Position numbers and translations under genes: made by a program. From a virus (Duplodnaviria; Caudoviricetes), in the IMG/VR virus record IMGVR_UViG_3300021425_002620: DNA of 64,000 nucleotides; one strand, given 5' to 3'. Position 1 is the stretch's first letter; every line of letters begins with the position of its first letter. Below are positions 23,721 to 46,481 of this stretch, piece after piece. The notes beneath the pieces were generated by a model, which made no database searches, was not told the DNA's origin, and saw nothing but the letters and a program-made list of their open reading frames with translations.

Positions 23721-25616
23721 TTAAGATGCTTCGTCAAACTCTGCATCAATTATATCCTCAGCTTCAATTGGACCTTCGTCTGTTGCTGCTGAAGAATCTT
23801 TTTGCTGTTTAGCCGCCATTACTGCGCCGGCTGCGGTAGCAAACTCCGTGATCTTAGCGTTGATAGCATCTGTATCATCGCCTTTAACTGCTTCTTCTAA
23901 TGCATCACGTGCTTCAGTATAAGCAGTAACTTGTTCTTCTGTTAAGTCTGCTTGCACTTCTTCAAAGTCACGGTTGGCTTGAGCAATGTGTTGCTCTGCA
24001 CCATTACGTGCTTCAACAAGGGCTCTACGCTTCTTGTCTTCTTCTGCATTAGCTTCTGCATCTTTCACCATTTGTTCAATTTCAGACTCAGACAAGCCGC
24101 CGTCACTTTGAATAGTTAACTTTTGTTCTTTGCCTGTGCCTTTGTCTGTAGCACTTACACTTAGAATACCGTTTGCATCAATATCAAATTTTACTTCAAT
24201 TTGAGGAATACCACGCATTGCTGGTGCAATACCTTCTAAGTTAAACATGCCAAGATGTTTGTTATCTCTGATAAACTCACGCTCACCTTGTGCTACATTA
24301 ATTGTAACTGCTGGTTGGTTGTCTTCTGCTGTTGAGAAAACTTGTGACTTTGATGTAGGAATAGTTGTATTCTTATCAATCAATTTAGTCATAATGCCAC
24401 CCATTGTTTCAATACCTAGTGACAATGGAGTAACGTCTAATAATAGTACGTCCTGCTTGTCGCCTGCTAGTACTGCACCCTGGATCGCTGCACCTGCTGC
24501 AACTGCTTCATCTGGATTTACATCCTTGCGTGGAGCCTTACCAAAGTATTTTTCAACAGCCGTTTGTACTGCTGGCATACGTGTTTGGCCACCTACAAGA
24601 ATAACTTCGTCAATGTCACTTGGCTTTAGTCCTGCATCTTTAACTGCAACTTTACATGGCTCAATTGAACGTGCAACAAGGTCATTCACCATTGCTTCGT
24701 ACTTTGAACGTGTAAGGTTAATAGCCATATGCTTAGGACCACTAGCATCAGCAGTCACATACGGAAGGTTAATTTCAGTTTGTTCTGTGCTTGATAGTTC
24801 TACTTTTGCCTTTTCTGCCGCTTCCTTCAAACGCTGAAGAGCCATTTTATCTGTCGATAGATCAACAGCATCTGACTTTTTAAATTCTGCAATCAAATAG
24901 TCAATAATTGCTTGGTCAAAATCTTCACCGCCTAAGAATGTGTCGCCGTTTGTAGCAAGAACTTCAAACTGCTTTTCACCGTCAACATCTGATATTTCAA
25001 TAATTGAGATATCAAAAGTACCACCACCTAAGTCGTATACTGCAATCTTCTTATCACCTTTGCCGCCTTTATCAACACCATATGCTAGTGCTGCTGCCGT
25101 TGGCTCGTTGATAATACGTAGGACTTCAAGACCTGCAATCTTACCAGCGTCTTTAGTTGCTTGACGTTGCGAGTCGTTAAAGTATGCAGGAACTGTAATA
25201 ACTGCTTGTGTTACAGGCTCACTTAGATATGCTTCTGCATCTTGTTTAATTTTGCGTAGGATTTCTGCACTAATTTGCTGTGGTGCATACTTTTCTTCAC
25301 CTACTTGTACCCATGCATCTTTGTTGTCTGCTTCGACAATTTTAAAGGGCATGTTTTTGATATCTTTTTGTACTGCTTTGTCTTTGAACTTACGTCCAAT
25401 CAAACGTTTTACAGCAAATACTGTACTATCTGCGTTTGTTACGCCTTGACGCTTTGCAGTAGTACCTACTAGAACTTCACCGTCGTCCTTATAGGCAACA
25501 ATACTTGGGGTAGTTCTGTTACCTTCTTTGTTTTCGATGATTTTATATGATGATCCGTCTACAATAGATAGACATGAATTTGTTGTACCGAGATCGATAC
25601 CGATTACTTTTGCCAT
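23721..25616 (-). CDS. dnaK: chaperone DnaK
   Basis: [46 protein letters not shown]; full length. Confidence 0.99.
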
Positions 25617-43331: not shown

Positions 43332-44012
43332 TTATGCATGTTTTTCATAGTAGGTGTAAACGCGATTCCACCATTCTTGTTCCCATTCGGCAAACTCGTC
43401 TGGCCAAATATCAAACTGTTGATAAGTTAAGTCTCTAGAACACATAAACACATGTCCTTCACGTATATTAGTACCGTGTACTTCGTTGTGTGCGATTGCG
43501 TAGGCAGTAAGTTGTAGGAAGTAATCATAAACCCATTCTTCTTTCTTAGGTTTATTTGACTGCTTGAAGTCCATAATACAAGGATTGCCTTTGTATTGTC
43601 CTACTAGGTCTGTTGTACCTGCATAGATGCCTGGAACATATAATGGAACTTCTGAACCCCATATTTCGTCTACATCACACATGGCTTTTTCTTTAATTTG
43701 TGTTGCCATCTTATGTGCTTGTTGTGCGTAAGGATTGCTGCCGGGTTGAGGCCATTCACCAAACTCAATATAGTCCTCAAGATACTTGTGCATCCTTGTT
43801 CCTACACCTGCTGCTTCAGTAACAATTTCCTGTGCTTTCTGTTCTCCCACTCTTTTACGCCATGCAATAAGATGTGTTTTATCTTTTGTTGCATCAAGGA
43901 TTGTAGTAACACTTGCTACTGGGGGGCTTCCTGGTGCTGCATACCTACGTTTGCCATTTACTTCAACTCTCTTCAATCGCTCATAGGTGTATCTTTCAGT
44001 AATTAAACTCAT
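43332..44012 (-). CDS. PD-(D/E)XK exonuclease
   Basis: SVTTIL, GTRMH, SE..LY, AGTTDL, MDFK, QLTAY. Confidence 0.88.
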   Translation of the reverse strand: MSLITERYTYERLKRVEVNGKRRYAAPGSPPVASVTTILDATKDKTHLIAWRKRVGEQKAQEIVTEAAGVGTRMHKYLEDYIEFGEWPQPGSNPYAQQAHKMATQIKEKAMCDVDEIWGSEVPLYVPGIYAGTTDLVGQYKGNPCIMDFKQSNKPKKEEWVYDYFLQLTAYAIAHNEVHGTNIREGHVFMCSRDLTYQQFDIWPDEFAEWEQEWWNRVYTYYEKHA

Positions 44013-44024
44013 AAGTTCTCCAAT

Positions 44025-44062
44025 GTTAACAACATGTTAACATCAAAAGTGTTGTTTGTCAA
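44025..44062 (-). promoter_or_regulatory. sigma70-like promoter overlapped by TTAA-N7-TTAAC
   Basis: TTGACA-N17-TAACAT; box at 44026-44041 reads on both strands. Confidence 0.55.
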
Positions 44063-44068
44063 GTTAAA

Positions 44069-44380
44069 TTAAAGGTCTGATAAGTCAGTTGCTCGTTTAG
44101 CCATATCGGTTACAGTTGTATCCGGAGCATCTGTTGCAGGTGATGCTATTTGATCCATTGCATCATCATTAATTGTGATGCCGTCTGGATCAAACTTTAC
44201 TAACTTTTGTAGTTGTGCAGTTGAATCGTATATTGTTTTGAATGATTCATAATTGAACTGAGGTATACCGGCTTTTTCCATATACTCGTTCATTGTGTCC
44301 CAAGATACTTGAGAACCAGGTTTGATTGTTTTTAGGATTTGTAAGACAATGCCAGCATTGTCTAATGTTTCATTTAAGCC
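44069..44380 (-). CDS. -1 frame extension of the 44374..45111 gene (103 aa)
   Basis: Frame open from the A8 run to 44069 with no ATG/GTG/TTG for the first 29 codons. Confidence 0.6.
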   Translation of the reverse strand, partial: GLNETLDNAGIVLQILKTIKPGSQVSWDTMNEYMEKAGIPQFNYESFKTIYDSTAQLQKLVKFDPDGITINDDAMDQIASPATDAPDTTVTDMAKRATDLSDL

Positions 44381-45111
44381 TTTTTTTTAGAACGCTCTAC
44401 AGACTCACGTTTTTCACGGCCTGCTTCTTCTTCACCGCCAGCTGCTGCTGCATCTGTTGCGAACTCATCGTCCATTGGCTCTTCTGCAGGTGCTTCCATG
44501 TCCATTTCGCCGTCAACTGTTGGCTCCATTGCTGGATCTTCTGCGCCCATTGCGTCCATTGGCTCAGCTTCGCCTGTAAGCATACCAACACCTTGTGTTA
44601 GTGTTTCGCGTGTTGTTTCCATTGTTGCATACATTGCTTCTAGTGCAGGCTTAACTGTATTAACAAATGATTCAGATTGCTCTGAACCCATTTCATCGCG
44701 AATAGCATCTGCTAGTTCTAACATTGATTCTGTTTGCATTTCAGCAGTGTCTTCCATCCAACCAGTTACACGGTCGACCATATCTTTTGCTGCCATTACT
44801 AATTCTGCTTTATCTTCTTCGCCTTCTACAATAACACTTTCTTCAATTGCTACATCAACATGATCACGCTCAGAAAGCTCAGCATTTAAAACGTCAAGGA
44901 AGAGTTTTGATTTTTGATACTGTGCTGTGCTTGTTGAGTTGAAACTTTCAGTTGTTTCAACTTGGCTTAATTTAGTACGTAAGTTATTACGTGCTGTTTG
45001 TAGTTGATCGATAGTAAACGCTTCTAGGTTAATGCGTTGTCCGAACTTCTTAGCAAGGCTTTCGTTTAAGCTCTTCGCTGTTACTGGTTTTGAAATCTCT
45101 CTTATATTCAT
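44374..45111 (-). CDS. acidic coiled-coil protein, possibly head core/scaffold
   Basis: M/E/A-rich; ends SKKKA* across A AAA AAG. Confidence 0.7.
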   Translation of the reverse strand: MNIREISKPVTAKSLNESLAKKFGQRINLEAFTIDQLQTARNNLRTKLSQVETTESFNSTSTAQYQKSKLFLDVLNAELSERDHVDVAIEESVIVEGEEDKAELVMAAKDMVDRVTGWMEDTAEMQTESMLELADAIRDEMGSEQSESFVNTVKPALEAMYATMETTRETLTQGVGMLTGEAEPMDAMGAEDPAMEPTVDGEMDMEAPAEEPMDDEFATDAAAAGGEEEAGREKRESVERSKKKA

Positions 45112-45640: not shown

Positions 45641-45880
45641 CTATTCGTCTACTTCTACACTATCACCTGGTTTAATTAATTTTGCTGGATCTTTTTTGTT
45701 GGGGTCTGGTTTCTTATTAAGTTGGACTTTACCCTGAGCATCTTTTGTTAATGCAGCAGGATTCTTTTTAAGGTCAACAACTGTTTTAGTTCCGTCACCG
45801 TGATCGATTTCAGCACTCTGACCAGGTTTCACCTGGCTAATTTTAGCAGGTTGCGCTTCTAAAATTTCTTTCATCTTCAT
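45641..45880 (-). CDS. small late protein
   Basis: MKMKEILE N-terminus; ATGA coupling. Confidence 0.7.
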   Translation of the reverse strand: MKMKEILEAQPAKISQVKPGQSAEIDHGDGTKTVVDLKKNPAALTKDAQGKVQLNKKPDPNKKDPAKLIKPGDSVEVDE

Positions 45881-46185
45881 ATTCTTTTTCCTTTAGACTT
45901 TTTCTTTTGTGTTCTATAACCAATATTAATATTGCTTAATCTCTTTGAATACGGATTTGCTCTCTTTGTCCTGCTGCTTTTTACTTTAATCGTAGGCGCT
46001 TTTGACCTTTTTGTTTTTGTTAATGTTCTTGACGCTTTTACATTACGTGGTGCATGACATGTTGCTGCCTTTGCAACAATACGGCCTTTGCGTTTACCAC
46101 TAGTGCAACGATACTTACGAACAGTTTTGTTTCCTGAACGCCCAAAGATAGTAGTTACACCTTCTGTTATTTGTCGCAGTAACAT
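45877..46185 (-). CDS. highly basic small protein (paralog A)
   Basis: VRKYRCTSGKRKGRIVA..ATC. Confidence 0.8.
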   Translation of the reverse strand: MLLRQITEGVTTIFGRSGNKTVRKYRCTSGKRKGRIVAKAATCHAPRNVKASRTLTKTKRSKAPTIKVKSSRTKRANPYSKRLSNINIGYRTQKKKSKGKRI

Positions 46186-46481
46186 TAAATTCTTCTACTT
46201 CTACCTGCTCGGTTTAATGCTGCTACTCTACGTGACGCTGCGTTTGTCCTTTTTGTTTTTCTAGCCTTACGTGTCATTTTAGCACCGAGTCTTGCTTTTG
46301 TCAATTTTAATTTGTTTCTCTTTTTTATGTCAGGTTTAGCAAAGCATTGTGATATGTTAGCAACAATGCGGCCGTGACGTTTTCCGCCTGAGCATCTAAA
46401 CTTACGGACAACTTTCTTGCCCTGTTTTGCCCAAGCCATTTTTGCTTCACCAAGAGGTTGTGTTAGTTCTCGTAATAACAT
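46185..46481 (-). CDS. highly basic small protein (paralog B)
   Basis: VRKFRCSGGKRHGRIVA..SQC. Confidence 0.8.
   Translation of the reverse strand: MLLRELTQPLGEAKMAWAKQGKKVVRKFRCSGGKRHGRIVANISQCFAKPDIKKRNKLKLTKARLGAKMTRKARKTKRTNAASRRVAALNRAGRSRRI

Follow-up and report, generated by a model that had tools for sequence, protein, structure and literature searches.

A conserved adenine run between two overlapping reading frames of a large marine T4-like phage is likely to mark a single recoded gene

Introduction

The minus strand of a 64,000-nucleotide stretch of viral DNA (IMG/VR record IMGVR_UViG_3300021425_002620; Duplodnaviria, Caudoviricetes), referred to below as the window, carries a gene for a protein of 245 amino acids (aa) which ends in a run of eight adenines, and beyond this run a second open reading frame (ORF) continues in the -1 frame with no start codon over its first 29 codons. 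This arrangement raises the question of whether the two ORFs represent separate genes, a single gene that was broken by mutation or by a sequencing error, or a single gene whose halves are joined by slippage on the run. A first-pass annotation had favoured the last of these, as a ribosomal frameshift of the dnaX type which extends a putative head protein. On the evidence presented here, the 245-aa gene and the 103-codon -1 ORF are likely to form one recoded gene, with products of 245 and 347 aa and putative release of the added part in the prohead.

The source of the window is a large marine T4-like phage. The window encodes ribonucleotide reductase, DnaK and tmRNA, and a near-identical contig of 18.8 kb is rated by CheckV as 9% complete. 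The DnaK (Hsp70) homologue (23721-25616, minus strand) is full length and shares 66-67% identity with bacterial DnaK proteins in tblastn. A cluster of small genes ends with the 245-aa gene, which is followed by a sigma-70-like promoter and a gene for a PD-(D/E)XK exonuclease.

Results and Discussion

Anatomy of the site

The features of the locus, all on the minus strand of the window, are as follows.

44374..45111, minus strand: upstream gene with the 245-aa zero-frame product (from the ORF list)
45097..45111, minus strand: leader MNIRE of the upstream protein, of the M-x-[ILF]-x-E type (from the ORF list and comparison with stand-alone leaders)
44387..44389, minus strand: TAA which closes the -1 frame directly 5' of the slip site (sequence reading)
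44380..44388, minus strand: slippery run of eight A (44388-44381) followed by G (sequence reading)
44069..44380, minus strand: -1 frame extension of 103 codons plus stop, GLNETLDNAG...ATDLSDL (from the reading frame and its conservation in relatives)
44369..44377, minus strand: L-N-E codons TTA AAT GAA, a putative prohead-protease site just past the junction (motif kept in relatives)
44344..44363, minus strand: perfect 8-bp hairpin with a 4-nt loop, a possible stimulator, 16 nt 3' of the heptamer
44069..44293, minus strand: 74-aa ORF, an N-terminally truncated reading of the extension (from the ORF list)
44034..44062, minus strand: sigma-70-like promoter TTGACA-17-TAACAT with TG (consensus match only)

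The 245-aa ORF ends TCT AAA AAA AAG GCT TAA, and the heptamer A_AAA_AAG lies in its zero frame at 44386-44380. The TAA at 44389-44387 shuts the -1 frame, and the -1 ORF is thus left with no entry from upstream. Beyond this TAA the -1 frame reads AAA AAA GGC TTA AAT GAA and remains open to a stop at 44071-44069, which amounts to 103 codons counted from GGC. The earliest ATG, GTG or TTG in this frame comes at codon 30, an ATG with which the listed 74-aa ORF begins. The description in the first-pass annotation (the ORF end, the heptamer, the closed and then open -1 frame, the position of the first start and the hairpin) holds in every detail when the sequence is read again.

At the A-run, some ribosomes or transcripts very probably slip back by one base. 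Most translation would stop at the TAA and yield the 245-aa protein, while a fraction would change frame by -1 at the run and yield a fusion of 347 aa, with the junction ...RSKKK-GLNE-TLDNAG... and the predicted junction peptide (K)GLNETLDNAGIVLQILK. The sigma-70-like promoter, situated between the stop of the extension and the exonuclease gene, appears to mark the limit of the expression unit formed by the 245-aa gene and its extension. The promoter-like TTGACA-17-TAACAT also overlaps an inverted repeat, GTTAACA TGT TGTTAAC (44020-44045, minus strand), which lies just 5' of the Shine-Dalgarno (SD) sequence of the exonuclease gene and may be an operator.

Authenticity of the A8 run

A reading of this locus as a pair of frames depends on the length of the homopolymer, and the first-pass annotation had named a ninth A in the reads, whereby the two frames would become one ordinary gene, as evidence that would refute a frameshift. 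An independent seawater metagenome contig (run X3, depth of about 115) spans positions 44000-44751 with zero differences and zero gaps, and thus reads A8, as does an IMG/VR contig of 99% identity. Raw reads of the DNA run X21 gave almost zero coverage of the region, and contigs from two RNA libraries match 44091-44341 and 44501-44826, the A-run lying outside both.

The run is the sole A-run or T-run of at least eight in the whole 64-kb window. Relative to a first-order Markov model of the window, sense-strand A-runs are depleted about six-fold: coding-strand A-runs of at least seven number 4 (24.6 +/- 4.7 expected) and those of at least eight number 1 (8.4 +/- 3.0 expected). Coding-strand T-runs show no clear depletion, with 8 of at least seven (9.4 expected) and 0 of at least eight (2.8 expected). 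The genome thus avoids poly-A on the sense strand, yet retains a run at this position.

The split state could also have arisen from a continuous gene by loss of one A, through sequencing error, decay or phase variation. In this respect, three contigs encode a continuous protein of 344-376 aa, and their runs (P0008, A9; P0012, A10; P0219, A11) are each one A longer than those of their split relatives (A8, A9 and A10, respectively). Two of these continuous fusions were found among the best 120 of 4132 homologues of the upstream protein, about 118 of these 120 being split, and one further case among the 150 listed representatives (of 518) of the extension domain, of which all but one are split. 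The out-of-frame state recurs in all 54 distinct IMG/VR contexts described below, both halves are conserved at 30-80% identity, and A8 itself is confirmed at a depth of 115. An origin of the split by mutation or error is therefore most improbable, and the A8 site is neither a sequencing error nor a decaying gene. One of the rare fusions, P0008, reads exactly the predicted junction, SKKKGLNETLDNAG.

Conservation of the run and of the frame

A relative of the locus was found in 563 viral contigs, 80 of which were fetched to give 54 distinct junction sequences; the fetched loci range from 58 to 100% identity in the upstream protein. All 54 have a run of eight to ten A within five codons of the stop, mostly as TCA AAA AAA AAG. 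The run is A9 in 50 of them, A8 in two and A10 in two, with a G directly after it in 52. In 50 of the relatives AAG is in the zero frame, and the remaining four keep an in-frame A_AAA_AAA. In every case the downstream ORF occupies the -1 frame, uninterrupted from the run, the +1 frame being closed, and in 53 of the 54 there is no ATG, GTG or TTG in the -1 frame between the last stop and the run.

The pattern of conservation extends to silent positions. The first two lysine codons of the run are always AAA, in genes in which 39% of the lysine codons elsewhere are AAG. The codon that precedes the run is TCA, CCA, CGA or TTA, such that its third-position A is constant across four amino acids. Together, these two features point to selection at the nucleotide level.

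In three relatives (L005:3720-3790, L048 and L051) the slippery cassette occurs as a tandem duplicate, TCAAAAAAAAAGATCTAACTAAC then TCAAAAAAAAAGATAGCTGAAG. The post-shift frame in these loci meets a second in-frame TCA AAA AAA AAG before an I-A-E motif, and a second slip at the duplicate run would lead to a stop. The C-terminal tail of the upstream protein may also be remodelled: a homologue of 334 aa (P0114) has an internal tandem repeat, ATKNAMMADAEKMSK..., ahead of its C-terminus and still ends SSKKK, with the lysine run retained.

The extension as a domain, and lineages with a start codon

The 29 codons that separate the run from the first ATG allow a simpler account, in which no recoding occurs, the downstream ORF is translated alone, starting either at the internal ATG (74 aa) or at a non-canonical codon, and the preceding 29 codons are an untranslated spacer. 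The window does have an ATG at codon 30, and gene callers routinely report such short ORFs. Nei-Gojobori dN/dS, a crude estimate which is partly saturated here, is 0.78 for the first 29 extension codons, compared to about 0.5 for the rest, suggesting that constraint on these codons is weak by that measure. In the relatives, however, the position of the first start after the run varies, from 0 to 40 codons into the conserved protein, and this start is often a TTG or a GTG. Homology of the extension begins at residue 2-4 in most relatives (tblastn), the alignment is conserved from its first residues, and the frame is open from the run in all 54.

The predicted structure likewise involves the segment in question. 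In the AlphaFold2 model of the extension (49 sequences, pLDDT 73), residues 1-78 form a compact H-b-H-H-b-b domain followed by a disordered linker, beyond which the C-terminus carries a conserved V-x-x-MAK-x-AT. Residues 1-29, before the first ATG, are modelled as helix 1 and strand 1, and the predicted fold would thus require them. The order of elements in DSSP fits the winged-helix arrangement H1-b1-H2-H3-b2-b3, and the top 50 structures in VIA-align are mostly winged-helix domains, with Z of 5.6-7.4, below the caution line of 8; the best Foldseek E value is 0.11. These structural matches are weak, and the extension is best described as a folded domain of about 80 residues, possibly a winged helix. 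A feature search also offered DUF3008 (score 0.86); this weak lead had no Pfam confirmation and was set aside.

A profile of the extension matched 518 cluster representatives. Many of these are gene calls of 65-98 aa from an internal Met, which is how gene callers see loci of the frameshift type. Stand-alone proteins of full length (105-131 aa) account for about 35, and the domain also forms the N-terminal part of proteins of 261, 463 and 771 aa. Profile positions 1-33 align to stand-alone proteins which translate this segment from their own ATG, which argues against its being a spacer. All of the full-length stand-alone and longer forms begin with a leader, M-[RK]-[ILF]-x-E-[FVIL].

A single-protein query for the stand-alone forms gave 5 loci. 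Wherever the DNA of stand-alone loci could be read, an ATG is present, the junction is ATGA or TAAtATG, and the A-run is absent. The upstream gene is a homologue of the 245-aa protein (...KRESIE...) and the synteny is unchanged, with the exonuclease gene and then a gene for a pectate-lyase-like fibre. An ATGA overlap places the downstream gene in the -1 phase, the same as in the frameshift arrangement. At one and the same locus, therefore, a run without a start and a start without a run are mutually exclusive. This exchange between lineages, as read from the sequences, is the strongest single argument for the run standing in for the start codon. The first-pass annotation had considered orthologues with a normal start and no slippery site to be evidence against a frameshift; such orthologues do exist, but only in a separate, more distant lineage, and the mutual exclusivity of run and start speaks in favour of the claim. 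Independent translation of the downstream ORF would moreover leave both the invariant A-run and an invariant Glu just past it without a reason, and is highly improbable.

Reinitiation was another candidate, since many relatives have TAAATG at the end of the upstream gene. It was rejected, because this ATG belongs to the zero frame and begins an ORF of three codons, not the extension. Among the proteins with the extension domain, the 771-aa protein (P0159) and a protein of 134 aa (P0146) share the extension domain at their start and a common tail, ESMEY(M/L)RLSIEYNKIKS, such that P0146 looks like P0159 without an Ala/Gly-rich middle of about 640 residues.

The existence of two isoforms of about 245 and 347 aa, as first proposed, is thus strongly supported by the comparative data, the set ratio between them being a part of the model. 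A locus of two genes that exists with two types of junction, ATGA with a start or an A-run, in the same -1 phase, also offers a natural experiment on the origin of recoding sites.

Which molecule slips

A slip of the ribosome by -1 and the insertion of one A by RNA polymerase yield an identical protein. The efficiency of the shift and the identity of the slipping molecule are matters that we infer.

The heptamer A_AAA_AAG is the most shift-prone in E. coli (PMC5009743). Its occurrence in the zero frame, the -1 ORF that can be entered by slippage only and the conservation of the lysine run at the nucleotide level are all shared with E. coli dnaX and with IS3/IS911. The surrounding elements are less similar. 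The hairpin of the window, AGACAATG-CTGG-CATTGTCT (44363-44344), has a predicted energy of -10 kcal/mol and z = -1.78 compared to shuffles. A 64-kb strand contains 26 perfect 8-bp hairpins, and the chance of one in a given 25 nt is about 1%. The spacer between heptamer and structure is usually 5-9 nt, and the 16 nt found here are longer than typical, as had been remarked at the outset. The stem is not retained in the closest distinct relative (5 of 8 pairs), which has a different hairpin; spacers among the relatives vary from 5 to 37 nt, and RNAalifold detected no common structure in 49 aligned junctions. The window hairpin is therefore real but weak, distant by 16 nt and not conserved in position.

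Some enrichment of structure is nevertheless evident. In the relatives, the 45 nt downstream of the run show more structure than other segments of these genes do (mean z of -1.0), and 39% fall in the lowest decile, a figure which does not amount to a clean P value because the sequences are related. One clade retains a 9-bp stem, GTAGATAGY-N3-RCTATCTAC, via compensatory changes. Upstream of the run, an SD-like 4-mer at 3-20 nt was found in one of the 54 relatives (background of 10%), whereas E. coli dnaX and IS911 have such an element. The dnaX-type cassette proposed in the first-pass annotation is thus incomplete: the heptamer and the start-less -1 ORF stand, the run being present in all 54 relatives, while the hairpin is not constant in position and the SD-like element is absent. 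Further differences from the dnaX and IS type are the A9 of most relatives and, with regard to dnaX, a product that is truncated there and C-terminally extended here.

These same differences are suited to another possible mechanism, whereby RNA polymerase slips on the run of eight to ten A and adds one A to a share of the transcripts, which are then translated normally into the fusion. Transcriptional slippage on A9-type runs is employed by Thermus thermophilus dnaX, by Shigella mxiE/spa13 and by some IS elements, which resemble the present locus in their homopolymer of about nine A between overlapping frames and in needing no flanking stimulators. The A9 of 50 of the 54 relatives goes beyond the A6G that a ribosomal heptamer requires, the base before the lysine codons stays A whatever the amino acid, there is neither a position-conserved 3' structure nor an SD-like 5' stimulator, and the window counts show sense A-runs to be depleted, as would be expected if they are slippery in this system. 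Bacteria use runs of about nine A in this manner (PMC5009743). The window itself, however, has A8 only, and the relatives keep the run in phase (zero-frame AAG in 50 of 54, A_AAA_AAA in the other four) even though a polymerase needs no phase. Moreover, A9G comprises two overlapping ribosomal heptamers, and the length of the run is therefore not decisive between the two mechanisms. The enriched downstream structure and the compensatory stem of the one clade would serve the ribosomal route. Slippage by the polymerase as the source of the fusion is accordingly a serious but less probable reading, and ribosomal -1 slippage on A_AAA_AAG is somewhat more likely than insertion of one A by RNA polymerase. 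The ribosomal mechanism originally envisaged gains from the in-frame heptamer of conserved phase, although the mostly-A9 runs fit polymerase slippage at least as well and the constant preceding A is compatible with it, and both processes may contribute.

The upstream protein and a possible route into the prohead

The upstream protein consists of the leader MNIRE, a conserved helical core and an acidic low-complexity tail with the end RSKKKA. Its 4132 homologues in the database are nearly all of 243-256 aa. It matches phrog_14154, 'virion structural protein' (E of 2e-11), and in the fused form P0008 the match runs over the junction with an E value of 2e-14. Pfam and NCBIfam contained no family for either the upstream protein or the extension, nor did PHROGs for the extension, and cultured-phage records (megablast, tblastn), among which near-identical entries may be masked, gave no match to the region, to the 245-aa protein or to the 771-aa stand-alone homologue.

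The junction itself carries a second conserved element. A [VIL]-x-E motif occurs 1-11 residues past the run in all 54 junctions, its Glu is invariant in the alignment, and K-K-[VIL]-x-E of the junction takes the position that M-R-[ILF]-x-E, the leader, has in the stand-alone homologues. The internal proteins of T4 have a 10-residue N-terminal capsid-targeting sequence, and T4-type prohead proteases cleave after the Glu of a short motif (PMC9026906, PMC3012670); from the same literature (PMC9026906, PMC3012670), MNIRE seems to resemble such a capsid-targeting sequence. The evidence for a prohead protease comes from outside the window, namely from a complete relative of 357 kb (G002, 71% identity in the 245-aa protein), which encodes a Peptidase_S77 of the T4 gp21 family (E of 8.5e-27).

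These observations allow a packaging role to be proposed. The upstream protein, bearing the same type of leader, would carry the extension into the prohead at a fixed sub-stoichiometric amount, where a prohead protease of the T4 gp21 type would cut after the invariant Glu (L-N-E|T) and free the domain inside the head. Uptake and release in the prohead are suggested by the invariant [VIL]-x-E aligned with the leader, by MNIRE and by the precedent of the T4 leader and protease. The frameshift may thus be a packaging device, in which the slippery lysine run has replaced the leader, and a minor fusion is co-assembled and freed by the protease at [VIL]-x-E; this proposal is a tentative one, with a probability that falls a little short of even. 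The earlier notion that L-N-E acts as a gp21-like cleavage site is strengthened by the invariance of the motif after the junction and by its alignment with the stand-alone leader, which make cleavage plausible. The label of head protein is kept as a putative one, on the basis of one PHROG match, the leader motif and the analogy with T4, and a location of the 245-aa protein and of the fusion in the head is proposed by that analogy.

Comparison with other phage and viral systems

The recoding mechanism is of a known kind. The proposed recoding is comparable to that of T7 gene 10A/10B and lambda G/GT, in which a virion or assembly gene undergoes a -1 shift close to its 3' end and thereby yields, at a set ratio, a minor product with a C-terminal extension. 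The genes are unrelated, and the present locus also differs in that the added part is a self-contained domain which elsewhere is a separate gene, and in that a protease motif lies at the junction.

The internal proteins IPI-III and Alt of T4, whose capsid-targeting sequence is cut by gp21, are similar in their short N-terminal leader with hydrophobic-x-Glu at its end; one relative has a protease of the gp21 family, and the gene belongs to a cluster of small genes that bear leaders. There is, however, no sequence homology, and the leader has 5-6 residues rather than 10. In the extension the Met-Arg of the leader is replaced by the lysines of the slippery run and the cargo is supplied as a fusion, the packaging and cleavage being putative. 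The proposed logic, in which a -1 frameshift fixes how much of the carrier bears the added part and a maturation protease releases this part in the particle, is also that of retroviral Gag-Pol. This is an analogy and not a homology, and the putative cargo of the phage is a small domain that does not look enzymatic.

Full-text literature searches turned up no account of the present frameshift, or of one in any capsid-targeted protein of a T4-like phage. While the mechanism is familiar, its proposed use would be new for tailed phages: the run takes the place of both start codon and leader, and the cargo domain arises solely as a putatively cleavable fusion. If true, the proposal would add a conserved recoding event to the T4-like phages, in an upstream family of more than 4000 homologues from seawater and estuary samples, and a strategy of the Gag-Pol type not described for tailed phages, with the frameshift-type and separate-gene lineages as a natural comparison. 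If release by the protease holds, it would represent a second way, beside the short targeting leader, of supplying a T4-type head with a defined quantity of cargo, with a bearing on head assembly and on T4-type heads as vehicles for protein delivery. In practical terms, the downstream gene is at present mis-annotated as a truncated ORF of 65-98 aa.

Elsewhere on the minus strand of the window (45877-46481) there are two adjacent small and very basic paralogous ORFs of 102 and 98 aa. They matched no Pfam, PHROG or NCBIfam family, and their starts, MLLRQITEG and MLLRELTQPLGEA, are leader-like and end in hydrophobic-x-E.
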